In this document: piece after piece, positions 14,087-53,208 of the stretch
Layout of the letters: every line of letters begins with the position of its first letter
Position numbering within the stretch: position 1 is the stretch's first letter
NCBI GenBank assembly: GCA_018432315.1
Contig: JAHDLB010000022.1
Span: 12,247-76,246 of the forward strand
Direction of reading: 5' to 3'
Source of the DNA: Anaerolineae bacterium
GTDB lineage: Bacteria; Chloroflexota; Anaerolineae; Aggregatilineales; Aggregatilineaceae
Length of the DNA: 64,000 nucleotides
Position numbers and translations under genes: made by a program
Notes under the pieces: generated by a model
Database searches by the model: none
What the model saw: the letters and a program-made list of their open reading frames with translations, nothing else
What the model was told of the DNA's origin: nothing

Positions 14087-15810
14087 CCACTACGTGCGTC
14101 TTCCGTTCTTTCTCGGACCCTTCGAGACGGTTGGTTTTCTTCAAATTCCGCCCAAGCTATAAGTAGCAACTTCATTGTCTCACCAGCATCAAACGGTTTT
14201 TGTCCTTGTGGCGTAACCGACTTGCCATTGCTCGATGGCTCAATCAGATCCATTACTCGCGCATAGATAGGATGATTAGAGTTGATTATTATGTTGGCAA
14301 CGTTGCCTTCGTTTTTGATTGCAAAGAACGAGTGATCATCTATCTCTGCCGACGAAAAAACATAGTGTATGCCACAATCAATTGTTATGGCATGAAGATT
14401 GTCTTCACTATCGGATTGAGCACCCAGGCTACTATGTCGATTTGATATAGGCTGCCCGTCGGCTTTTTGCAGTAGTTGAGGCTGAAGGTATTCGCCCATT
14501 TCCAACTCGTCGTGCGGGGAACTCTCGTGTCCTGTCTCTTTTTCTCCTGGTAGTTCCTGGAGAGATGGCTGGACGTTCGTTTGTGTGCTGGTCGCGTGTG
14601 GCTCGTGGTTCTGGTCGCGTTTCCTCAAATGGTATACGTACACAGGCGCGAGCGTAGTGTGTGCTGGGGGTTCTTCAGGTTCAGCCAATATGTGTTGCTG
14701 CCTAAGAGTTTGAAGTTGTTCGTATATATCACGATGATGAACTGCTACACCGAGCCGCCTGGTCAACGCCCCCTGCAGTTCTCCGATAGTGGCGGTTTCA
14801 CGTTGACCCAGAAACTCTAGTATTGTTTCCCGAATCTGATCGGGTGTGACGGCGGGTTTTTCCTTTGTTCTGGGGTCTTGCCCATCCATCTTCTTCAGTC
14901 GAAACATTAAGACGGGATGTTGAGGTGTACTCGATGCGTGTGGTTCTGGGCGTGCGAGAAAGCCCGCTTTATGAAGCCCTCTCAGCGCTTGGTTTATTTG
15001 GGTGGGATCAATCCTGTGATCATATATCCGTGCTAACTCGTCTACCAAATCCCGCGACGTGATCATCTCAGAATTCTCAAGAATCCTCATGATACATTCC
15101 GACAGATCCGATTCCAGATGGGGTAACTGTAGCTCGACGTTTTCGTGTTCTTCTGCTGCTGGTTTTGCAGCAAGTTCGTATATGAATATTGGCTGTCGAG
15201 TCGTGCTGTCTGGGTGCTCATGAGGTTCTATGACCACCTTTTTCCCCCTCAGAATTTTCAGGTGTTCATAGATGGTAAGCCCGGTGGACCGAATCCCTTG
15301 CACAGCGAGTGCGTCCACAAGCTCGGCTACTGTGGCAGATCGAAGCTCCTGAAGAGCATTGATGATGTGTTGCTCAAGATCGTATTGTTGTGGCAGTTGT
15401 CTAACCTGAGGTTTTTCGTTTGCCGCTTCGTGTCTGTTGTCAACATCTGTGTCGATTAACTTTGGGCGACTGGCATCAACAATTGGTTCTCCAGCATCGG
15501 CTTGAGCATTGGATTCGATATCCATCCAGTGCATGTGCGAGGCATTATCATAGTAGAAGTGGGTGCGCCCTTCTCGATGAAGCACGCTGTTCACGAGCGA
15601 TTTGTCTACTACGACTCCTCGGTTGGCTAACCCAACAGTGATCTGCCGACTCATGCGTGGCTGTCCGTCAGCCAGTATTTGCCGAATGTGATTCAGAATT
15701 TCCAGGCGCACGGTAAGATCGTCGTCTGCTTGGCGGTTGCCCCATGAGCGCAACAATTTCATACTTGATGTCACTCCTGCCGCATGAAATCGCGGGCTAT
15801 TTTCCCCCAA
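14038..15810 (-). CDS. Protein with four tandem winged-helix-like modules and a C-terminal domain paralogous to the C-terminus of the adjacent GHKL ATPase
   Basis: Three clear repeats share the pattern I..xL....xT..ELvdxL......IYExLxxLRxxxxxxEPxx(8-10)P[IV]x[IMV][YF]xL (aa 143-213, 233-305, 322-395), plus a more divergent first copy (aa 33-88). The C-terminal 130 aa align with aa 478-606 of ORF 15771..17591. The likely true start is ATG 15762, preceded by AGGAG. Confidence 0.6.
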   Translation of the reverse strand: MGENSPRFHAAGVTSSMKLLRSWGNRQADDDLTVRLEILNHIRQILADGQPRMSRQITVGLANRGVVVDKSLVNSVLHREGRTHFYYDNASHMHWMDIESNAQADAGEPIVDASRPKLIDTDVDNRHEAANEKPQVRQLPQQYDLEQHIINALQELRSATVAELVDALAVQGIRSTGLTIYEHLKILRGKKVVIEPHEHPDSTTRQPIFIYELAAKPAAEEHENVELQLPHLESDLSECIMRILENSEMITSRDLVDELARIYDHRIDPTQINQALRGLHKAGFLARPEPHASSTPQHPVLMFRLKKMDGQDPRTKEKPAVTPDQIRETILEFLGQRETATIGELQGALTRRLGVAVHHRDIYEQLQTLRQQHILAEPEEPPAHTTLAPVYVYHLRKRDQNHEPHATSTQTNVQPSLQELPGEKETGHESSPHDELEMGEYLQPQLLQKADGQPISNRHSSLGAQSDSEDNLHAITIDCGIHYVFSSAEIDDHSFFAIKNEGNVANIIINSNHPIYARVMDLIEPSSNGKSVTPQGQKPFDAGETMKLLLIAWAEFEENQPSRRVRERTEDARSGWGRRLKDVLRRNGNQ

Positions 15811-17591
15811 TCGGTACGTGCGTCTTGTGTACGTTCACGCGGGACTCCGTCGAGTTGTTCATCTTCATAGCGTGCCCAGGCTAGCAGTAACAGTTTCAGC
15901 CCCTTGCTAGCTCTTTGAAGACGAGACTGCAATGTCTCTATATCTTCTTCATCCTCAATGTCACCGGTTTCGAGCACTTCCAGTAACTGCTCGTAGGCGG
16001 GGTGATTGACATTAAGCAGTACCGTGATTACGCCGCCTTTTGGCCGAACTGTGAAAAATGCTGAACCTTCGAGATCTGCCACATCGAAAATGTACTTGAG
16101 ACCACTGTCAATAGTGAATGCGGCAAGCTCCTCAGCGTCTTTCTCTGGAATACCACTTGCAACTAGTGTTTCCTGGACCTGTATCTTGCGCTCCTGAACG
16201 GGCAGTGTTCTTTCTTCTTCATCGCTATGGCTGACATGCCCTTCATCACGCCGCCGCTGGGTGGCTTCTGTAGCAATCGCTGGCGGGCTTGACGGATCAG
16301 AGTGACGAGATCGCCGCTCTCGCTCACCACTTTTTTGGGCTGCAATCTGCCGACGCATCATGCGGATGTTCTTGTCGATTCGTTGCGTTATCTCATATAG
16401 CGGCAAGCGGGGGTCCTCGGCAGCTTCCAGTTCAGCTATAGTATCTTCAAACACTTGGTCTTCGGTTGCAATCATCCGTGCAATATCAGAGAAGTTTCTA
16501 GCAGACTGCTTGTTGTTCGTGACGCCGAAGAGATCATCCAGTGCCGGCGGAAAATCGATTTCGACCCCCCACCAGCGTTCGCGAGGATCGTAAGGGACAG
16601 CCCATGCTGCATCCAGCTCGAGTTCTCGATCTGCTCGCATGAGCGAAACTCCTACGTTTCTTTTGGCATGTTTGCCGTGTGGCTTGCTGCCCGCCTGAGC
16701 GCCGCTTCGGGCCTCTTCGGTCGCGATAGAAAACCGGATAATCACTTCTTGCTGTTCTCCACGAAAGCTGACAATGGGTCTGACTTCGTAGCTTTCTGGT
16801 GCTGGCCACGGCATGAACATAGGCTGCTTGTCAAAGGGGGCTGGACAGGAGGTTTCGGCCATCAGGTAACAGGGATCATTAGGGTGTGCGGCCTTCTCCG
16901 TCAATATGTTTGTGGGATTGTCCACATCAAAAGTTTTGAAAAGAATGGTTGTTCTGCCCTGAGTAATGAAGCGACGGTATATGCGTCCCACCAGTTCTTC
17001 GGAGTTATGGATGATTGCTCGTGATGTTTTCCAAAGGCAGCGATCGATCCCTGACCAGACAACAAGTGTTCCAGCGCTTTCAAAGGAGTTTGTTACGTCG
17101 AGCCATATGTTCGGAATATCGCGATAAGCTGGTTTGGGAATGCGGGTCAGAGTTCCTTCCTCGATTTCATCTAGATCCAGATAGGTATGTAGCAGCGTGT
17201 CGGGCCCGTTCGTCCAAGACCACACATCGACGCGGCGACACTGGGAAATCGATGAGGAAGGCAAGCCCATACCGAAACGGCCAATTCCCGTATGGTTCCT
17301 GGGATCTAGATACAGACCATTTCCAAACTGAAGCGCCATGTGCAGCACTTCAGCATCCATTCCACTGCCGTTGTCGAGAACCGCTATTCGATCAATACGA
17401 GAGCGTGAACGTTGGTCGACGATATCTGTTTTGTCTCCACATAAAATCTCTACACGTGAGGCTTCTGCCTGGATGGCGTTATCTACCAGTTCAGCTAGGG
17501 CGTATGCCGCGTTTTTGTAGCCACTGTCCCGCATGGCTTTGATGGCTAGGCTGGCGGGGATAATGTCGTGTTCTTCTGCTTGATTTGTCAT
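15771..17591 (-). CDS. GHKL-superfamily (MORC/HATPase_c_3-like) ATPase
   Basis: 606 aa with N-box ALAELVDNAIQA, G1 box VLDNGSGMD and G2 box GRFGMGLPSS. The start lies 3 nt after the helicase stop. Confidence 0.75.
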   Translation of the reverse strand: MTNQAEEHDIIPASLAIKAMRDSGYKNAAYALAELVDNAIQAEASRVEILCGDKTDIVDQRSRSRIDRIAVLDNGSGMDAEVLHMALQFGNGLYLDPRNHTGIGRFGMGLPSSSISQCRRVDVWSWTNGPDTLLHTYLDLDEIEEGTLTRIPKPAYRDIPNIWLDVTNSFESAGTLVVWSGIDRCLWKTSRAIIHNSEELVGRIYRRFITQGRTTILFKTFDVDNPTNILTEKAAHPNDPCYLMAETSCPAPFDKQPMFMPWPAPESYEVRPIVSFRGEQQEVIIRFSIATEEARSGAQAGSKPHGKHAKRNVGVSLMRADRELELDAAWAVPYDPRERWWGVEIDFPPALDDLFGVTNNKQSARNFSDIARMIATEDQVFEDTIAELEAAEDPRLPLYEITQRIDKNIRMMRRQIAAQKSGERERRSRHSDPSSPPAIATEATQRRRDEGHVSHSDEEERTLPVQERKIQVQETLVASGIPEKDAEELAAFTIDSGLKYIFDVADLEGSAFFTVRPKGGVITVLLNVNHPAYEQLLEVLETGDIEDEEDIETLQSRLQRASKGLKLLLLAWARYEDEQLDGVPRERTQDARTDWGKIARDFMRQE

Positions 17592-19201: not shown

Positions 19202-19397
19202 AGTCTATATCCTTGTTCAACCTGACACTCCTATACTTTATATTACAACCAGGAATTTTTTGCCAGCTACTTAAATGAAAACTATGTGAATTCAAACGAG
19301 CGAGTTCGGAGTTTTGAATCATTTTGCTCGAAACTGTTCCGCGGGCTTCGTTACTGCGCATATCGCGCCACGCGCCACCCATCCTCGCTAGGACCAA

Positions 19398-19613
19398 TCG
19401 ATGGGTTAGGTGCGAGTTGTTCGCCACTGTCGCACGGCGCAGGGCCGTGTCCAGCCCTGTGGGCTGCTGCGACGAGTTTCTTCCTGGCTTGCGCCGGGGC
19501 GATTGATAAGGCTAATCGCCCCTCACCAGAAACTCGTGCAGGGCTACGCCGACACGTCCCTCCGACGCGCCGTGCGCAAAAGCGGGCGAACTCGCACCTT
19601 AAAAACCCATCGA
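19398..19613. other. Core of a highly structured non-coding element (nested long-range helices); candidate ncRNA or single-stranded-DNA structure
   Basis: The outer helix pairs 19398-19440 (TCGATGGGTTAGGTGCGAG...GCACGGCGC) with 19567-19613 (GCGCCGTGC...GGCGAACTCGCACC...AACCCATCGA). Inside it, 19471-19480 pairs with 19529-19538 and there is a hairpin at 19496-19522. More perfect stems lie at 19724-19749 and 19775-19792. Confidence 0.4.
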
Positions 19614-19963
19614 CCGAACTGGCCCGGCTACGGGCGGATTGCAAAGCTTCATGGCGCTGCGGTCTATCCGCAGCTGAAACCCTATCGAGCCGACGTCAGT
19701 TCCGAGATGAAAACTCCTCCGAAGTAACAAAGCAACCCCGCTTTGTTACGGGCATTTCCGATGGTCGTGGACTACTTGAGATCGATCTCAAGTGCCGGTA
19801 GGGCCTCTGAATGTGTACTGGATTCTCCGGTGTGTTCGCCGCACGCCGCCAGTTGCCACGTCCAGGCCGCAACCGGGAGTGATAGAGGAGCTTGAGCAAG
19901 TTCTAACCATCCCCGGATAGACATGCTTTCCAAAAGCCCTTCAATTCATCTCGGAGGTATTGC

Positions 19964-35838: not shown

Positions 35839-37527
35839 ATGACGCAACTTGCAGATTATCTTCCTCAAGCGGCATCATGGTTCTCAAATACGTTGACTTA
35901 CAGTGGCAGAGGTCGTATTGAGTTCCTTAGCCCTAAAGGTTGGGTGGAGGGTGAATTTTCTTGCGAGGTTAGTCGCTTGGGAGAGATGACAGTTATCGTT
36001 AAGGTTCAAGTTTGGCACAATAGCGAAATGCCCAGTGATCCTACCTCGGTCGCCAGTCGAGATTGGCTCGTATCAGGTGTTCAATTGAATAGCGGTACCC
36101 CATGGCCAATGTACCCAGAGCCGACGCCAATTAAGAACACTATTGTTTCAATCGATGTCGAAGCCTCTGACGGTGGTAGATTAACATCAAAAGACATACC
36201 TCACTATGCATGGAACCCCATCGAAAACACCATGAAGCTGTATCTCGACCTAGCTACTTTTATTGCCAATAACCAATCGAAGACAAATGCAAAATACTGG
36301 GTGTTGCCTTGCATCAATGTCAACCTAAAACATCCTTTTGGGATTACACAAGCTCATAAATACACAGAATTGTGGCAGCATCCACTACGGGTTTTCCCAG
36401 TACCTGAGAGAACACGTGCCTTTTTGGAATCAGAGGCTCCAGAACAGGATAAAGCTTGGGTTTTCCACAACCTGACGGCACTAAGTTATGTTGTCGGTTT
36501 TTTGTTCGACGGTAAACCAGCATTTATTGAACGTCTCCCTGATTATGATCGAATCATCCAGGATTTAATGGATGGCCAGTCCCGCTTAGACGCAACCAGC
36601 CTAATGGTTGGTGTCTATTCGTCCGAAGTAGATGAGATGCGCCCCTTGGATTTATTACCGGTATTGGGCTTGGCTACTGGACGCCCCGTTGGAGCGTCCT
36701 GGATCGAATTCCGCAATGAAGACACTAACCTGGTTTACCGAATTCATGGAAATCTAGGACGTTTCACATATGGTCACGGTCGTCCTGTTGTGCATGATGT
36801 AATCCATCGGGGTGGACTTGGACAACTGCTAACTGAAGCTGCTAGGTCAACGATGTTATCTGAACCATTGATTCGTGGCGCATTGCGCAACACTGCCCAT
36901 GCGATTTCGGGAGGGGATGCTACCACGATTTTTTATTACACCTTCACAGCGTTCGATGGGCTTTTTACACGTTACAGTATCGAACAGAAGATACATCCAT
37001 TAACATCTTTCCTTTCTCAATCTCAAATAGACGATATCAAACGAATATTGGTACAAACCAAGACGGATATAGAGAGTTTGAAAACCAAAATCACAAACCC
37101 GAATTCCATCGCAGGCAGACAACAGTCTAGTGTTATCGACAAAGTAGCCAACAAGGCGCGTAGCCAACCCCTGGAAAAAAGGAGTCGGTTTGGTGACAAG
37201 TTAGTAGCGCTTATGATGCATTTTGGAATCTCAGATATGGAAGTGCCTGCTACTCATTATCCAGACATCGAAGTTTGGATTACACAGGTAAATGATTATC
37301 GGAATACAACCATGCATGCAACACACTATGAGAATGTTTTCGATCCTGGAGCCCGACAGAATTTTGAGTTCATCACCCCACACCTAATCGATATTCTCAT
37401 TCGCATTTTGTTGAAGACTGTCGGATATACAGGCAATTATGCTCCATATATGGAAACTCCCAACTCAAGCGAAAGCCTGGATTGGGTTACGCCAACGTCA
37501 TCAGCTAACTCGTTGGGCTACAAATAA
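35839..37527 (+). CDS. A/T-rich cargo gene: protein with a C-terminal HEPN-type Rx4H motif (ApeA/Abi-like candidate RNase)
   Basis: 562 aa. VNDYRNTTMHATHYE contains RNxxxH in a helical C-terminal region. Codon and base composition differ clearly from the flanking ICE genes. I do not recognise the N-terminal 400 aa. Confidence 0.5.
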   Translation: MTQLADYLPQAASWFSNTLTYSGRGRIEFLSPKGWVEGEFSCEVSRLGEMTVIVKVQVWHNSEMPSDPTSVASRDWLVSGVQLNSGTPWPMYPEPTPIKNTIVSIDVEASDGGRLTSKDIPHYAWNPIENTMKLYLDLATFIANNQSKTNAKYWVLPCINVNLKHPFGITQAHKYTELWQHPLRVFPVPERTRAFLESEAPEQDKAWVFHNLTALSYVVGFLFDGKPAFIERLPDYDRIIQDLMDGQSRLDATSLMVGVYSSEVDEMRPLDLLPVLGLATGRPVGASWIEFRNEDTNLVYRIHGNLGRFTYGHGRPVVHDVIHRGGLGQLLTEAARSTMLSEPLIRGALRNTAHAISGGDATTIFYYTFTAFDGLFTRYSIEQKIHPLTSFLSQSQIDDIKRILVQTKTDIESLKTKITNPNSIAGRQQSSVIDKVANKARSQPLEKRSRFGDKLVALMMHFGISDMEVPATHYPDIEVWITQVNDYRNTTMHATHYENVFDPGARQNFEFITPHLIDILIRILLKTVGYTGNYAPYMETPNSSESLDWVTPTSSANSLGYK

Positions 37528-37616: not shown

Positions 37617-39164
37617 TTACAGGTCAACGTCGAGATTTACAGCTTCTAACGCAGGGTTGGATGCTTCATTTAGCCTGGGCTGCCATGCCTCAGCCGGATG
37701 CATAACACGCCATTCGCCCGCCTTGAGCTGCTCCAGAGATTGCTCGTCCATCGTTTTCCACCGGCTGTCCATTTTCAGATCGTCCGCAACTGCTTTGGCG
37801 AACGCGGGACCGGGGATGTGGCTCAGTTCTTCCATGCCCGCCAGCGACATGAAATCATCTCGGAACTGGTTGGCCCTGTCCTCGGTCTGGAACTGCGCGA
37901 CTTCGAGCCACTGCGCACGCTGCGGCGCATCCGGCGAAACAGCCTCAGCGAGATCGGCAAAATCTACCACGCACACCGCCGAATAACCCAACGGCTCACC
38001 TTCGGGATCACGCGCGGGCACGATGTCCAACCGCCAGGTTGGAGCGATGTCCTTCGGCTCAAAATCCTCAAAGACAAAGTCCTGCGCCTGGAGATACGGC
38101 GTGTCAGGCTTGATGCTGATCGCGACCAGCGTGTCATCAGCCAGTGGGGGTGTGGCGGTGGGCAGACTCTCGTGGATGCGCTCGGTGTCATAGATGTTTT
38201 CCGTCACGACTCGCACATGGTCGCGGTAGGCTTGCCACTCCTTCGACGTGAGCGGTTCCCAGGCCGGTTCGTGGTCGCCATCGTAGTCGGGCGGGTAGTG
38301 CCCGTCGTTCTGTTCGAGCAGGTCGGTCAACGCGGCGTCTGATTCGGCCAGCGCGATACGTTCAAAGAGGGCCGGATTGTCGTTGAAACCCGCCGGTGAG
38401 AACGCCGATTCGCGGTCTTCAGCCACGCGACTGAGCAGCGTCTGCTGCTGGTAGGACAAAGCTCCATCAAGCGTGTCGAACTCGCCCATCGGCAGCCAGC
38501 GTGCTGCCCACCGGTTGTCTTCGTGGTTGGCATACACATCGACCACACCGACGCTGTAACCGTCATCCACACCCTGCGGCGTGGCCGACACCAGCGCAGC
38601 ATCGAAGTGATACCAGCCGGTTTCCGGCTTTGGCTCAGGTTCATTTGCACCCAACGCAGGCAGTTTTTCAGGGAAGGGCAAACCGTGATCACCTGCCGTA
38701 TTCCGTGCTAGTATCTGCGCCGCCGAGAGGTCGCCGTTTTCCAGATGCAGGTGCAGCGCAGGCAGCGGCCAGGGCGAGCGGTCAGGATCAGCCACCGGCA
38801 TGACTGGCAACGAGTCGTGCAGGATGATGTCCTCCTCGGTTTTGTGGGCGCGGAAGTAGCGCAGCTCATGTGAGACGTCCTCTGGCAGCGGGCTGTCCGA
38901 CGGGCGATCAATCACCGAAAAGAAGTGAACCGTATCCGCCGCGTCGCGGTGATGCGGGACATAACGTCCCTGAACATCAAAGGGTGTCATGTCGTCGCCG
39001 AACGTAACCGGCAGCACTAGCACGGCAGGCCGGGGTGTGGGCGGCTGGTCCCAGACGCTGCGGTCCGGCCAGTCGGGATGGTCTTCCCATTCCGGCGGCG
39101 TGTTCCCAGTTTCAAATGCGGGTAATGGATTTACCGTCAATTCGACTCCTTCCATGCCAAACAA
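37617..39164 (-). CDS. Acidic hypothetical protein with two copies of a module shared with the next two genes
   Basis: 515 aa and Asp/Glu/Pro-rich. The modules are DDGYSVGVVDVYANHEDNRWAARWLPMGEF and PLGYSAVCVVDFADLAEAV...WLEVAQFQTEDRANQF. The plus-strand ORFs over this span are Arg/Ala/Pro-rich artefacts. Confidence 0.6.
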   Translation of the reverse strand: MFGMEGVELTVNPLPAFETGNTPPEWEDHPDWPDRSVWDQPPTPRPAVLVLPVTFGDDMTPFDVQGRYVPHHRDAADTVHFFSVIDRPSDSPLPEDVSHELRYFRAHKTEEDIILHDSLPVMPVADPDRSPWPLPALHLHLENGDLSAAQILARNTAGDHGLPFPEKLPALGANEPEPKPETGWYHFDAALVSATPQGVDDGYSVGVVDVYANHEDNRWAARWLPMGEFDTLDGALSYQQQTLLSRVAEDRESAFSPAGFNDNPALFERIALAESDAALTDLLEQNDGHYPPDYDGDHEPAWEPLTSKEWQAYRDHVRVVTENIYDTERIHESLPTATPPLADDTLVAISIKPDTPYLQAQDFVFEDFEPKDIAPTWRLDIVPARDPEGEPLGYSAVCVVDFADLAEAVSPDAPQRAQWLEVAQFQTEDRANQFRDDFMSLAGMEELSHIPGPAFAKAVADDLKMDSRWKTMDEQSLEQLKAGEWRVMHPAEAWQPRLNEASNPALEAVNLDVDL

Positions 39165-39751
39165 GGGAGTATGGGGGCCAGGGTATGCGACCGCACCGCT
39201 TCGGCGGTAGCTGCCTTCAGGAACACGTCCGTATCACCTTCCGCCTGGACTTCGAACAGGCGCTGCTCAATTCCCGCCATCTCCGCGACCGGACCGCGCG
39301 CGACCGGCGCGATATCCAGCCGGTCACCATCGAAACGCAGCACATTCAGCGTGGCGAAAGCCACATCCGGGGCAGGTGGATACAACCCAATGAGATAGAG
39401 CGGTTCGTCAGTCTCGTAGGGCATCGCCGTGACCAGATTCATTTCGACATCCAGCCCTTCGCGCCCCTGATCCAACAGCGTTTGCTCGACTTCGCGGACG
39501 TGTTCCTCCGCCGCCATCTGCGAACGATATTCGGCCAGTGTCAGGCGCTGCTGGCGTTCGTCACCCTGCGCGTCGTGTGTGGTGCGCACCAGGTCCACGC
39601 CATACGGCTCGTCGCTCAAGAGGCGTTTGGGCAGATCAAGTTCAACGCTGTAAGCAGCGTCCGTGGTGCGGTACACCAAACCCTCGCCCTCATCGAGCGC
39701 GACGTCGCCGTTCGGGAATTCCTTGCGAGTGATAGTTTGTTCGCCGGTCAT
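39137..39751 (-). CDS. Acidic hypothetical protein
   Basis: 204 aa. It contains PLYLIGLYPPAPDVAFATLNVLRFDGDRL, which is related to the module in the neighbouring genes. Confidence 0.55.
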   Translation of the reverse strand: MTGEQTITRKEFPNGDVALDEGEGLVYRTTDAAYSVELDLPKRLLSDEPYGVDLVRTTHDAQGDERQQRLTLAEYRSQMAAEEHVREVEQTLLDQGREGLDVEMNLVTAMPYETDEPLYLIGLYPPAPDVAFATLNVLRFDGDRLDIAPVARGPVAEMAGIEQRLFEVQAEGDTDVFLKAATAEAVRSHTLAPILPCLAWKESN

Positions 39752-39981
39752 TCCACTCGCTCCACCGGGCGCAGTTTCAGATGGAAAGTGCGCCCATTTG
39801 CCGCAAACTGGCCGCTGCCGTTGTTACCCAGGTCGATCTTGGACTGCCGGATCATCCGCCGCAGGACTGCCCCGCGATCACAGCCCAACTGCTCAGCCAG
39901 TTCGGCCAGAGCAGTCTTGTCCTCATGGGAAAGCCGGAAGGTGAAAGAGGTATTCAGATCGCTCATAGGTCCAGCTCCCAC
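39748..39981 (-). CDS. Ribbon-helix-helix (CopG/Arc-like) protein
   Basis: 77 aa. FTFRLSHEDKTALAELAEQLGCDRGAVLRRMIRQ is an RHH pattern. Confidence 0.6.
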   Translation of the reverse strand: MGAGPMSDLNTSFTFRLSHEDKTALAELAEQLGCDRGAVLRRMIRQSKIDLGNNGSGQFAANGRTFHLKLRPVERVE

Positions 39982-41072
39982 TGCTGCGCGGCATATTCGC
40001 CGATGTCCTGGGCGGAATCCGGTTCAAGTTCAACGCCGCGCTCGTGCTGCCACTCACCGCGCTGATTGCCCGCAATCGCCATACCTTCAGCTGCTTCGAA
40101 GACACGCTCGATGTCGTCACTGCGATCAGCCACACCGATCAGGTGCTCGCTGGCTTGGTACGCTTTGTCCCAGTCGCCGACCACACACGGCGCAAGCTGC
40201 GCTTCATACGCGCCGGAGTCGGGATCGCGTGTCAGCGACAGGATGCTGGCGACACAGACGTCCCGGTCATCGGGATCGGGCTGGTAGACGCCGATCCAGT
40301 AGGCGGTGTTGGTCGCCTGGTCATAGAACGGCGGCGGATCACGGTCAGGATCAAAACCATCGGCAGACAGCCCTATATCCTCCAGCGCCTGCGCCGCCGG
40401 GTAGTGTTCCGGTTCCTCGATTTCAACTGCGACGCCGCCCAACTCGTAAGCCGTGCGCAGCAAGTCGTCATGGGCATATTCCGGCGGAACGTCCGGTTCG
40501 GGGTTTTGTACCAGACCAAACTCACGCTCGAACAGGGTGTACTCATCCGGCGTCAGCGCGCGCCATGCGGGAGGTTCCTCACCCTCACGCCCGGCGATCT
40601 TGGCCGCCGCGCGTTCGGCCAGGTCGGGTACGTCGTGTGCGCCCATCCCCTGGTCATAGGCGTAGTTGTTGAGGCGGTTGAACAGGTCTTCGGCCTGGTC
40701 GAGTTCATCCGGACCAAACGCCTGCACGCGCAGGAACGTGCCGCCCAGATCGCCCGACACCGTGTCGGCGTAGAGGTCCACACAGCCAACCTCATAACCG
40801 GTCAGGTCGCCACCGGCATCAACCTGTTCCAGCCCGACGAAACGCGCGTCCAGCCAGGACCAGTTGTCAGGTGGGTCCGGCGGGGGCGGCTCAAAACCGG
40901 GCAGCGACTGCTGATCCGGCGAGACCACAAACGGCTCCGGTTCATAGTCGTAGGACTCTGGCGGGGCTTCGTCCATGAAGCGCAAGTCATCCGGCGGCGG
41001 CTCGTAGTCATACTCGTAATCCAGCGGTGGTTCTGCCGGAACACCTTCCGGGGGAAAGTCGGCGTAAGTCAT
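39963..41072 (-). CDS. Highly acidic, Pro-rich hypothetical protein with two copies of the shared module
   Basis: 369 aa. The modules are LTGYEVGCVDLYADTVSGDLGGTFLRVQAFGPDELDQAEDLF and NTAYWIGVYQPDPDDRDVCVASILSL. Confidence 0.6.
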   Translation of the reverse strand: MTYADFPPEGVPAEPPLDYEYDYEPPPDDLRFMDEAPPESYDYEPEPFVVSPDQQSLPGFEPPPPDPPDNWSWLDARFVGLEQVDAGGDLTGYEVGCVDLYADTVSGDLGGTFLRVQAFGPDELDQAEDLFNRLNNYAYDQGMGAHDVPDLAERAAAKIAGREGEEPPAWRALTPDEYTLFEREFGLVQNPEPDVPPEYAHDDLLRTAYELGGVAVEIEEPEHYPAAQALEDIGLSADGFDPDRDPPPFYDQATNTAYWIGVYQPDPDDRDVCVASILSLTRDPDSGAYEAQLAPCVVGDWDKAYQASEHLIGVADRSDDIERVFEAAEGMAIAGNQRGEWQHERGVELEPDSAQDIGEYAAQQWELDL

Positions 41073-41087
41073 AGCTTACACTCCTCC

Positions 41088-42962
41088 CTAGCTCGTCGCG
41101 CCGCGCAGCGTGACCGGCTTGTGTTCCAAACCGCGCGTGTAGCCGCAGTCGGGGTAGTTCATGCAGCCGATGAATGAGCCGTGCTTGCCTTTGCGCTCGA
41201 CCAGGTCGCCGCCACAGGCCGGGCAGGTTTCATCGATGGGTGTGGGCGACTGGCGGCGAGTTTTGGTTTGCTGCTGGGCCGCCTGACCGGCAGCGCCTAA
41301 CTGCGGCGTGAAGTCGGCCCAGAAAGCTTTCAACACAGCCAGGCGGGTTGCTTCGCCGCGCGCGACTGCATCCAATGCTTCTTCAAGGTGCGCGGTATAG
41401 GGTACGGCGAACAGGTCCGGGAAGTGCTCGACCAGGAAATCACACAGAAGCGTGCCGGTGTCGGTTGGCACCAGGCGCTTCTTCTGGAGTTTGGCGTATT
41501 CGCGCTGCTTCAGGGTCTGGACCATGCTGGCGTAGGTCGATGGGCGACCGATACCGCGTCGCTCCAACTCGCGCACGAGCGACGCTTCGGTGAAACGCGG
41601 CGGCGCTTTGGTCTGGCGTTCGATGGGCAACCATTCGACCAGGTGCAGGGCAGTGCTTTCTTGCAGGAAGGGTAGTTGACTGTCCTGCTCGGCTTCCGCA
41701 TCCGGATCGGGCGGCTCCTGATAGACCTTGAGGAACCCATCGAAGATCAGGCTGCGGCCTTTGGCCTGGAACGTCAGCGGGTAGGCGTGTCCCTGTGTTT
41801 TGCCCGCCAGGATTTCAACCGCCTGCACCGCGTAACGTGCCTCAGCCATCTGCGACGCGACAAAGCGCTGCCAGATAAGCGCATACAGCGCCGCGCCATC
41901 ACCTTCAACCTGGACTGGCAGTTGCGCCACGTCGGTAGGCCGGATCGCCTCGTGCGCTTCCTGGGCGTGTTTGGCTTTGGCCTGGTAGCTTTGCGGTTGA
42001 TTAGGCACATAATCACCGCCATAGGTACGGGCGATGTGCTGCAAGGCCGCGCGCTGCGCTTCCGGCGCGACGTCCACGCCATCCGTGCGGTGGTAGGTAA
42101 TCTGTCCCGCTTCATACAGTCGCTGGGCGATCTGCATCGTGCGTTCCGGCGACAACCCTAATGCCTGACTCGCCGCCTGCTGCAAGGTGCTGGTGGTGAA
42201 GGGCGGGTGAGGATTACGGCGCTGCTCGCCGTGTTTGACGCTGCCTACCCAGAACGCGGCGTCGGTCAAACCTTTGGTCAGCGACTGTACCTGTTCATGG
42301 TTGAGCCGTTCGGCGGACTGCTGCTTGACGGTGTTCAACCGGGCAGTGAGCTCACCGGTATCGGCTTTCAGCAACGCATCCAGTGTCCAGTAGATTTCGG
42401 GCGTGAAGGCGGTGATCTGGCGCTCACGCTCCACGACCAGGCGCAGGCAGGCGCTTTGCACCCGTCCGGCGGAATAACGCCCATCCAATGCCTGACAGAC
42501 CACCGGCGACACGAGATAACCGACGAGGCGATCTACGATACGGCGTGCCTGCTGCGCTTCGACCAGGTTCACGTCGAGCGGGCGGGGGGATGCAACAGCC
42601 GCTCTCACGGCGTCTTCGGTGATGGCGGTGAAGGTCACACGAAACACCGGTTTATCCGGCGGCAGGTCGGCCAGTTGCAGCACATGCCACGCAATCGCTT
42701 CGCCCTCGCGATCCATATCCGTAGCGACATAAACCGCTTCTGCTTCCGAGATCGCTTTCAGCAGCCGCCGGACGATGTTCACCTGGCGCGGCAGCACCTC
42801 GTACAATGGGCGGAAATCAGCTTCGACTTCAATGCCCAACGTGTTTTCAGGCAGATCGCGGACATGGCCGTGTGTGGCTTCCACCTGCCAGCCTGCGCCG
42901 AGCATTTTGGCGATGCGAGCGCTTTTGGCGGTGCTCTCGACAATCAACAGCTTGTTAGCCAT
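41088..42962 (-). CDS. Type IA DNA topoisomerase (TopA/TopB-like) with a C-terminal zinc ribbon
   Basis: 624 aa with Toprim LLIVESTAKSARIAK and DMDREGEAIAWH, the catalytic Tyr region GQITYHRTDG, and C-terminal CPACGG...CMNYPDC. Confidence 0.85.
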   Translation of the reverse strand: MANKLLIVESTAKSARIAKMLGAGWQVEATHGHVRDLPENTLGIEVEADFRPLYEVLPRQVNIVRRLLKAISEAEAVYVATDMDREGEAIAWHVLQLADLPPDKPVFRVTFTAITEDAVRAAVASPRPLDVNLVEAQQARRIVDRLVGYLVSPVVCQALDGRYSAGRVQSACLRLVVERERQITAFTPEIYWTLDALLKADTGELTARLNTVKQQSAERLNHEQVQSLTKGLTDAAFWVGSVKHGEQRRNPHPPFTTSTLQQAASQALGLSPERTMQIAQRLYEAGQITYHRTDGVDVAPEAQRAALQHIARTYGGDYVPNQPQSYQAKAKHAQEAHEAIRPTDVAQLPVQVEGDGAALYALIWQRFVASQMAEARYAVQAVEILAGKTQGHAYPLTFQAKGRSLIFDGFLKVYQEPPDPDAEAEQDSQLPFLQESTALHLVEWLPIERQTKAPPRFTEASLVRELERRGIGRPSTYASMVQTLKQREYAKLQKKRLVPTDTGTLLCDFLVEHFPDLFAVPYTAHLEEALDAVARGEATRLAVLKAFWADFTPQLGAAGQAAQQQTKTRRQSPTPIDETCPACGGDLVERKGKHGSFIGCMNYPDCGYTRGLEHKPVTLRGATS

Positions 42963-46256: not shown

Positions 46257-46314
46257 ATGCGGAGAATTACCGTTTTGGGCATGTAAAATTGACCGGTTCC
46301 AGATGTAAAATTCC
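46257..46314 (-). promoter_or_regulatory. Copy B of the 58-bp conserved promoter/operator motif
   Basis: The reverse complement reads GGAATTTTAC...GGTCAATTTTAC...CCAAAACGGTAATTCTCCGCAT. It lies 147 nt upstream of the pilin-like gene. Confidence 0.6.
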
Positions 46315-53150: not shown

Positions 53151-53208
53151 ATGCGGAGAATTACCGTTTTGGGGTGGGAAATTTACGCGATCCGGAGCGC
53201 AAAATTCC
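53151..53208 (-). promoter_or_regulatory. Copy C of the 58-bp conserved promoter/operator motif
   Basis: The reverse complement reads GGAATTTTGC...GCGTAAATTTCC...CCAAAACGGTAATTCTCCGCAT. It lies 65 nt upstream of the lipoprotein operon. Confidence 0.6.

Follow-up and report, generated by a model that had tools for sequence, protein, structure and literature searches.

Two hyper-acidic modular proteins of a Chloroflexota integrative conjugative element end in a tail common to its candidate relaxases

What do hyper-acidic proteins encoded at the distal end of a transfer operon do for the mobile element that carries them? This question is raised by a 64,000-nucleotide stretch of the genome of an Anaerolineae bacterium (Chloroflexota; GenBank assembly GCA_018432315.1, contig JAHDLB010000022.1, positions 12,247 to 76,246 of the forward strand), hereafter the window, in which an initial annotation had pointed to three adjacent, highly acidic proteins with a repeated module and an embedded ribbon-helix-helix (RHH) gene. 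To our knowledge, conjugation in Chloroflexota is essentially unstudied and few parts of its machinery are recognisable. Here, we describe the locus as two acidic genes, named S and L, which lie on either side of the RHH gene in an integrative conjugative element (ICE) and whose products have a short C-terminal motif in common with candidate relaxases. This tail, a feature absent from the initial annotation, is the most informative one of the locus, and our tentative reading is that S and L are clients or substrates of the type IV coupling protein (T4CP) and may be delivered to the recipient as decoys, in the form of polyanionic mimics of nucleic acids.

The motif common to S, L and relaxases consists of an acidic, a hydrophobic and a second acidic residue followed by a terminal leucine or phenylalanine ([DE]-hydrophobic-[DE]-[LF]-COOH). 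Only two of the 658 open reading frames (ORFs) of at least 50 aa in the window, namely S and L, end in it. In 80 related loci, the motif terminates 133 of 2,960 ORFs of at least 100 aa. Of these, 71 belong to S, 48 to L and 13 to relaxase; a single further ORF best matches topoisomerase and is probably a read-through from topoisomerase into S, and no tailed ORF was left unassigned. It is absent from the C-termini of VirB4, topoisomerase, T4CP, the HU-like protein and a second RHH protein (RHH2) in the related loci, and the C-termini of the T4CPs across loci are conserved and basic. Throughout the source genome, 10 of 11,361 ORFs of at least 150 aa carry the motif at their end: S, L, a second relaxase paralogue and seven others, among them apparently secreted or membrane proteins and a metallopeptidase-like ORF, which look like chance occurrences. 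The last residues of the predicted S and L structures have a predicted local distance difference test (pLDDT) score below 50 and are presumably flexible, and such low model confidence is as expected for a free linear motif.

The relaxases that carry the tail form a family with invariant Y12, Y33, H130, H142 and H144 residues and a weak, sub-threshold match to TrwC (E 0.0025). Long members of the family end exactly in the motif (PDFEL, PDLDL and IELDL), and short members have D[LF][DE]x[WF]F two to four residues from the end, which MAFFT aligns with the terminal motif of the long form. Many related ICEs, such as L042 (2032-3042 and approximately 15338-16009), L001, L027, L029, L048 and L082, possess two relaxase paralogues, a short one of 217-226 aa with a DLDAWFPR-like end beside the T4CP gene and a long one of 306-342 aa, ending in [DE]-hydrophobic-[DE]-L, upstream of the VirB4 operon. 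The second paralogue in the source genome, located outside the window in the region C64:38844-42692, has 240 aa, shares 43% identity with the relaxase of the ICE and terminates in TPDLEIDL; it adjoins an RHH2-like gene and a gene for a 753-aa primase-like protein. No type IV secretion system (T4SS) genes were seen within approximately 8 kb on either side of this relaxase, and no other match to VirB4 or T4CP was found in the source genome beyond the ICE; the C64 locus looks like a mobilisable element and could use the coupling protein of the ICE. L itself, which follows an RHH gene, precedes the T4CP gene in some elements and contains an HHxD..VHFF string, was also considered as an HUH relaxase. 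This assignment was rejected, considering that the H-x-D-x5-H-x-F pattern of its module m1 is not invariant in 28 orthologues, that no relaxase appeared among the structural matches and that a separate candidate relaxase is present. As a separate observation, a 171-aa ORF at the GC boundary of the ICE (19286-19801, plus strand, pI 10.3) ends in LLEIDLKCR, in which the motif lies four residues from the end.

Since the tail is common to three unrelated families of one element, it may serve as a docking or translocation signal for a single receptor. The most likely candidate for this receptor would be the T4CP, which has to recognise the relaxase and whose C-terminus is conserved and basic. If the tail is indeed a docking signal, S and L would be clients or substrates of the conjugation machine. 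A different interpretation is that the tail mimics the C-terminal tip of single-stranded DNA-binding proteins (SSBs) or a clamp-binding peptide and thereby recruits or titrates a partner in DNA processing, for example the topoisomerase of the ICE, enzymes of the host that interact with SSB, or the beta-clamp. The SSB tip is a binding site for Topo III and many repair enzymes, and clamp motifs such as QxxLxL and QVELEF resemble the QWELDL end of S. Similar to SSB tips of the DDDIPF type, the tail is a disordered acidic segment that ends in hydrophobic-x-[F/L]-COOH, and its variants ELDL, DVDL, PDFDL and PELDF all combine acidic residues with a hydrophobic residue at position -2 and a terminal Leu or Phe. 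More DDPF-, DDLF- or EPEPF-like motifs occur in the disordered N-terminus of S, and the topoisomerase gene is always located directly upstream of S. The chromosomal SSBs of the host (C15:12762-13067 and C51:127084-127389) end in DDYPF and EDLPF, and the short SSB of the ICE (approximately 31049-31330, plus strand) ends in EDEAFS, without the canonical acidic-Pro-Phe tip. However, Asp or Glu occupies position -1 of the tail, where SSB tips have a conserved Pro, the position of the clamp-motif Gln is variable in S (Q, A, N, T or D) and S and L have no OB fold, the resemblance being one of short motifs only; we consider this interpretation improbable.

The number of acidic proteins had to be revised. 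In this assembly, L is represented by two ORFs, 39137..39751 (204 aa, pI 4.35) and 37617..39164 (515 aa, pI 4.30). Homologues of the 515-aa ORF are mostly intact proteins of 685-711 aa that are collinear over both ORFs, and a profile of intact L matches the source genome in two adjacent frames (profile positions 7-203 and 192-696). At the frameshift site, the window reads GGCCCCC-ATAC and its relatives read GGCTCCCAACAC. The two ORFs are thus two frames of one gene, and the locus has two acidic genes, not three. The acidity ascribed to all three ORFs by the initial annotation was borne out, and the apparent family expansion to three was partly a frameshift artefact. The frameshift could be either a real mutation or an assembly error; programmed frameshifting was judged unlikely, as no slippery heptamer was seen and the close relatives examined read through. 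Across related loci, L has between 498 and 1,081 aa, depending on the modules that were gained or lost, and the net charge of its orthologues lies between -58 and -156. In S and L, the negative charge is spread evenly (-8 to -14 per module and similar values for the linkers). In addition, the L ORF has only 354 aa in loci L022, L036, L044 and L074 and 325 aa in L043, and is missing from L035. No downstream T4CP matches were found in these elements, which are probably decayed or interrupted ICE copies.

S and L are paralogous, soluble proteins built of beta3-alpha2 modules that are joined by acidic linkers. The structure of S was predicted by AlphaFold2 from a 34-sequence alignment (mean pLDDT 70.8), and that of L by using P0126, an intact orthologue with 82% identity to L of the window (mean pLDDT 75.4). 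In these models, each module comprises approximately 95 aa and is formed by three long antiparallel strands (a beta-meander) followed by two helices, with two modules in S and five in L. The repeat reported by the initial annotation is hence real, but not its size of approximately 45 aa, as the strings that were listed there represent beta2-beta3 hairpins. On formal alignment by hhalign, three pairs of modules are significantly similar: S module A and L module m2 (E 3e-8 to 1e-11; strings 1 and 3 of that list), S module B and L module N2 (E 1e-6; strings 2 and 5), and L modules N1 and m2 (E 7e-7). The pair of S module A and the L C-terminal module (strings 1 and 4) is borderline, with an E-value of 2e-4 and a probability of 45%. 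Comparisons of class A with class B, including that of the two S modules with each other, were not significant (E 0.4), and L m1 has no significant sequence partner among the modules. The predicted topology is common to the modules, which by sequence fall into two classes; L m1 and the L C-terminal module cannot be assigned clearly to either. All invariant columns of the 28-orthologue L alignment are located within or just after the C-terminal module. In P0294 (1,028 aa), a distant relative of L that ends in MDWEL, an S-type module A (GWGWHE...LLDVYRD...GDLAGSYLPL...WQPM..YALYEQL) is inserted behind the N-terminal modules of L, which shows that modules have been shuffled between the S and L lineages. 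The positions of genes, modules and tails are listed in Table 1.

Table 1. Genes, modules and motifs of the S-RHH-L region and associated transfer genes (positions of the window)
Feature	Positions	Strand	Description or basis
Gene S	39963..41072	minus	369 aa; 349 homologues, all unnamed, all Chloroflexota
S residues 1-66, disordered acidic Pro/aromatic-rich N-terminus	40875..41072	minus	pLDDT <50; alignment A1
S module A, residues 71-163	40584..40862	minus	WxW...GYEVGCVDLYAD; AlphaFold2 pLDDT 80-93
S module B, residues 249-344	40041..40328	minus	TAYWIGVYQPD...SILSL; AlphaFold2 model
S C-terminal tail E-L-D-L-COOH (S ends WELDL)	39966..39977	minus	Family consensus W-E-[LIVM]-[DE]-L
RHH gene, 72 aa, pI 9.2	39748..39966 (ATG at 39966)	minus	Pfam RHH_1 (PF01402) match
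Gene L, approximately 718 aa read as one gene	37617..39751	minus	Collinear relatives, profile search, DNA alignment
L frameshift site, 1 base absent beside C5 run 39173-39177	39172..39177	minus	MAFFT with relatives L002, L009 and L019
L module N1, beta-meander and long helix	39428..39703	minus	AlphaFold2 model of P0126; hhalign to m2
L module N2, class B	39191..39400	minus	LYLIGLYPPAPD...LNVLRFDG
L module m1	38688..38954	minus	HHxD..VHFFSV...ELRYFRA; same predicted topology
L module m2, class A	38310..38615	minus	GYSVGVVDVYAN...WLPMGEF
L C-terminal module, borderline class A	37779..38039	minus	GYSAVCVVDFAD...WLEVAQFQTE
L C-terminal tail D-V-D-L-COOH (L ends LDVDL)	37620..37631	minus	Family consensus [DE]-hydrophobic-[DE]-[LF]
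Type IA topoisomerase, same operon, directly upstream of S	41088..42962	minus	Pfam Topoisom_bac, E 7.7e-113
Candidate HUH relaxase, 218 aa	32428..33084	plus	C-terminus DIDDLDLWFPR, same acidic-hydrophobic motif
T4CP, basic C-terminal tail	33442..35463	plus	Pfam T4SS-DNA_transf, E 2.7e-35

S and the two ORFs of L are the most acidic products of the 45 plausible genes in the window. S has a pI of 4.05 and a net charge of -67 (-0.18 per residue; family median net charge -64), with 23% Asp plus Glu and 10.8% Pro. Its N-terminal region (residues 1-66; family median net charge -18) contains DY[DE]Y, PPDD and EPEPF motifs. Among the invariant columns of S and L, W, G, F, L, A and P predominate, a pattern that speaks against enzymes and in favour of binding or scaffold proteins; S additionally retains a few Q and R, and no catalytic-type conserved residues were seen in either protein. 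A membrane-like hydrophobic segment or signal peptide was found in neither S nor L, whose maximum 19-residue hydropathy (KD19) values of 0.62 and 1.16-1.22, respectively, are far below the 2.9-3.0 of the polytopic membrane proteins in the window, and both proteins also lack a lipobox, transmembrane helix and cell-wall anchor. Entry exclusion, which the initial annotation had suggested, is unlikely for proteins without a hydrophobic segment or signal peptide. More generally, a role as an entry-exclusion factor or a structural or surface part of the mating apparatus would agree with the operon shared with T4SS genes; given that S and L show no match to VirB-type components and lack any of the above anchoring features, we regard it as very improbable.

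The surrounding 20-64 kb represent an ICE, which contains genes for a methyltransferase-helicase, an E2/E1-like cassette, an SSB, an RHH protein with the candidate relaxase, the T4CP, an HU-like protein (pI 10.9), a VirB4-like ATPase, the type IA topoisomerase, a DUF3987 protein, a primase and a large serine recombinase. S, RHH and L occupy the distal end of the VirB4-topoisomerase operon, in agreement with the position at the end of a transfer operon that had been assigned to them. S starts 15 nt after the topoisomerase stop codon and has a strong Shine-Dalgarno sequence (GGAGGAG) 8 nt upstream of its start. Both the stop of S and the start of RHH, and the stop of RHH and the start of L, overlap in ATGA, by which the three genes are translationally coupled, and the coding strand of the S-RHH-L region revealed no promoter-like site. 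The embedded gene was correctly recognised as an RHH gene, as its product matches Pfam RHH_1 above the gathering cut-off (residues 13-46, E 1.7e-4, 21.9 versus 20.5 bits), and there is also a weak NikA-like match (E 0.036). Most related loci have an ORF of 72-89 aa at the same position. Autoregulation of the operon or participation in the complex is the probable role of the RHH protein. A 58-nt direct repeat with 72% identity (46257-46314 and 53151-53208) lies ahead of two minus-strand transfer operons, and the copy at 46257 heads the operon that ends in S-RHH-L.

The order VirB4, topoisomerase, S, small ORF and L is invariant in approximately 80 related loci, and S and L can be regarded as backbone genes rather than cargo because of this invariance. 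In these loci, L is followed by either T4CP-HU on the same strand or a convergent RHH2-relaxase-T4CP-HU block, the latter being the arrangement of the window. T4CP-HU is thus placed behind the relaxase in the window (33442-35759) and at the end of the S-RHH-L operon in L001 (14351-16650), and the occurrence of both arrangements across the family implies rearrangement of the DNA-processing module. A 562-aa ORF between HU and the end of L (35839-37527, plus strand, with a low GC content of 0.476) has no Pfam or PADLOC match; it looks like inserted cargo, because tblastn found no match to it in the approximately 80 related loci. S and L are the fastest-evolving backbone genes. In distant elements, identities of 45% (S) and 30-34% (L) are kept, compared with 75% for VirB4, 68% for T4CP, 61% for HU, 59% for topoisomerase and 54% for relaxase. 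Such rapid divergence, together with the variable number of L modules, fits proteins that face varying partners.

The family has no named relative in the databases that were searched, as the initial annotation had supposed. Pfam and NCBIfam gave no match at E<=1 for S and the two parts of L (L-N and L-C), nor was there one at E<=0.1 for the intact orthologue P0126; PHROGs had no match for S, L or P0126, PADLOC defence profiles none at E<=0.1 and PDB sequences none in profile searches with alignments A1 and A3. Foldseek queries were whole multi-domain models with a predicted template modelling (pTM) score of 0.36. The best E-values of the S and L models against PDB were 0.037 and 0.084, with probabilities of at most 0.5 and no DNA-mimic entry, and the best E-value of the L model against BFVD was 5e-3, with a probability of 0.12. 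Weak and inconsistent Foldseek matches, all with E>=0.005, involved PUR-alpha repeats, SAS-6/XLF heads, RNA polymerase beta lobes, dsRBD, ERF/Rad52 and leviviral coats and were not used. An exhaustive hidden Markov model search with 28 diverse L orthologues against 1.84 billion representative proteins detected 257 clusters, all belonging to this family, and the distant L-family members checked have no informative Pfam domains. All named sources of the family are Chloroflexota, mostly Anaerolineae, Aggregatilineales and Thermoflexus metagenome-assembled genomes, some of which have 3-6 copies; among 300 genomes sampled evenly across the phylum, S occurs only in the source genome of the window. 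The S/L family is new and unnamed; its kind, that is, T4SS-associated accessories or substrates and possibly DNA mimics, is already known.

These results bear on the proposal of the initial annotation that the acidic proteins resemble DNA-mimic or anti-defence factors such as ArdA and Ocr. In the classical form of this view, they would be expressed from the incoming DNA early after its entry. Similar to ArdA and Ocr, S and L have a very negative charge density, are encoded by a mobile, here conjugative, element and show no conserved residues of the catalytic type, and their rapid evolution would be in line with such a role. However, no sequence or fold similarity to ArdA (PF07275), Ocr (PF08684) or any other anti-defence or defence family was found in the above searches. 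Ocr and ArdA are compact proteins with a fixed, DNA-like shape, whereas S and L are 2-6 times larger, multi-module proteins with flexible linkers and a variable number of modules. In addition, their genes are located behind VirB4 and topoisomerase in the core of the T4SS operon, with no promoter of their own found, and on the relaxase/T4CP side of a candidate oriT, apart from the genes that probably form the leading region (ssb, methyltransferase-helicase, E2/E1 cassette and PRTRC-like genes). Anti-restriction cargo is usually variable, whereas S and L are invariant in every related element and have a tail in common with the relaxase. Membership of S and L in the ArdA or Ocr families is therefore not supported, and a classical function of this type seems improbable; taken as a whole, the interpretation of the initial annotation finds partial support. 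The charge density may still leave a nucleic-acid-mimic role for S and L, and, as the tail is common to relaxases, an anti-defence role, if any, would be exerted via protein delivery and not early expression.

Another possibility, which we place on the unlikely side, is that S and L are donor-side accessories that dock to the T4CP or relaxosome via the tail and are not transferred. They might act as a chaperone or adaptor of basic proteins (the HU-like protein, RHH or relaxase), or form a gate, competing for the T4CP with the relaxase until mating occurs, with VirE1 and IcmS/IcmW-type adaptors as analogues. Their operon and synteny with VirB4, topoisomerase, T4CP and HU are consistent with this explanation, and so is the coupling to the basic RHH protein, which suggests a stoichiometric complex. 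A common tail would imply competition for, or sharing of, one receptor, and the strongly basic HU-like and RHH proteins are natural partners of polyanions. VirE1 and the IcmS, IcmW and LvgA proteins associated with DotL are likewise acidic cytoplasmic proteins that work at the coupling protein; however, they are small, single-domain proteins of unrelated sequence, in contrast to the giant, modular and polyanionic S and L with their relaxase-like tail. The acidic chaperones and adaptors known so far comprise 60-200 aa, compared with 370-1,080 aa and a net charge of down to -156 in S and L, and variable module number and rapid divergence would be unusual for a housekeeping adaptor that serves a conserved machine.

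Our tentative preference, which we would put somewhat short of an even chance, is for S and L as substrates or clients of the coupling protein, possibly delivered to the recipient as decoys. Delivery as decoys is favoured because of the conserved, extreme polyanionic character of both proteins, the lack of catalytic-type residues, rapid divergence and modular expansion. In the least certain step of this proposal, polyanionic and partly disordered S and L may be threaded into the recipient like the complex of single-stranded DNA and relaxase. As nucleic-acid mimics, they would then occupy nucleases, restriction enzymes and other DNA-binding defences of the recipient before the ICE is expressed. 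Precedents exist in plasmid proteins that are co-translocated by conjugative T4SSs, such as ParA, ParB1, ParB2, SSB, PsiB and PsiA of pED208 and the Sog and TraC primases, which are element-encoded like S and L, can have C-terminal or internal signals and are proposed to travel with the DNA and aid its establishment (PMC8406263, PMC11288057). They differ from S and L in that they belong to unrelated families and have signals that are described as positively charged, hydrophobic or internal, and the translocation of S and L is only proposed.

Several observations weigh against the preferred reading. Known C-terminal T4SS signals are described as positively charged or hydrophobic, not acidic (PMC11288057), and the folded modules of S and L, within proteins of 370-1,080 aa in total, would need unfolding to pass the channel. 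Fast evolution may merely reflect weak constraint on acidic, linker-rich proteins, and L, being frameshifted here, may be non-essential in this copy of the element. The identity of the relaxase rests on conserved Tyr and HxH residues and the sub-threshold TrwC match. A more specific form of the reading is that S and L constitute a new class of conjugation 'escort' proteins, namely giant polyanionic mimics of nucleic acids with the tail as a simple consensus export tag that are injected with or ahead of the DNA and saturate the nucleases and DNA-sensing defences of the recipient. We view this form as distinctly doubtful.

The locus supplies two conserved, unnamed backbone proteins and a short C-terminal motif that, in the related loci, occurs only in them and the relaxases. 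If the proteins act only in the donor, they would still represent a new type of T4CP-associated accessory. If the tail targets the T4CP or T4SS, it would be a rare example of a simple consensus signal for a conjugative T4SS, and it would explain how elements without a T4SS in the same genome might be mobilised via their own relaxases. Hyper-acidic modular proteins would in that case be delivered factors, possibly providing protein-level anti-defence that is independent of early expression. If the 'escort' proposal is true, no short consensus signal for translocation would have been defined before the tail in a conjugative system of Chloroflexota.

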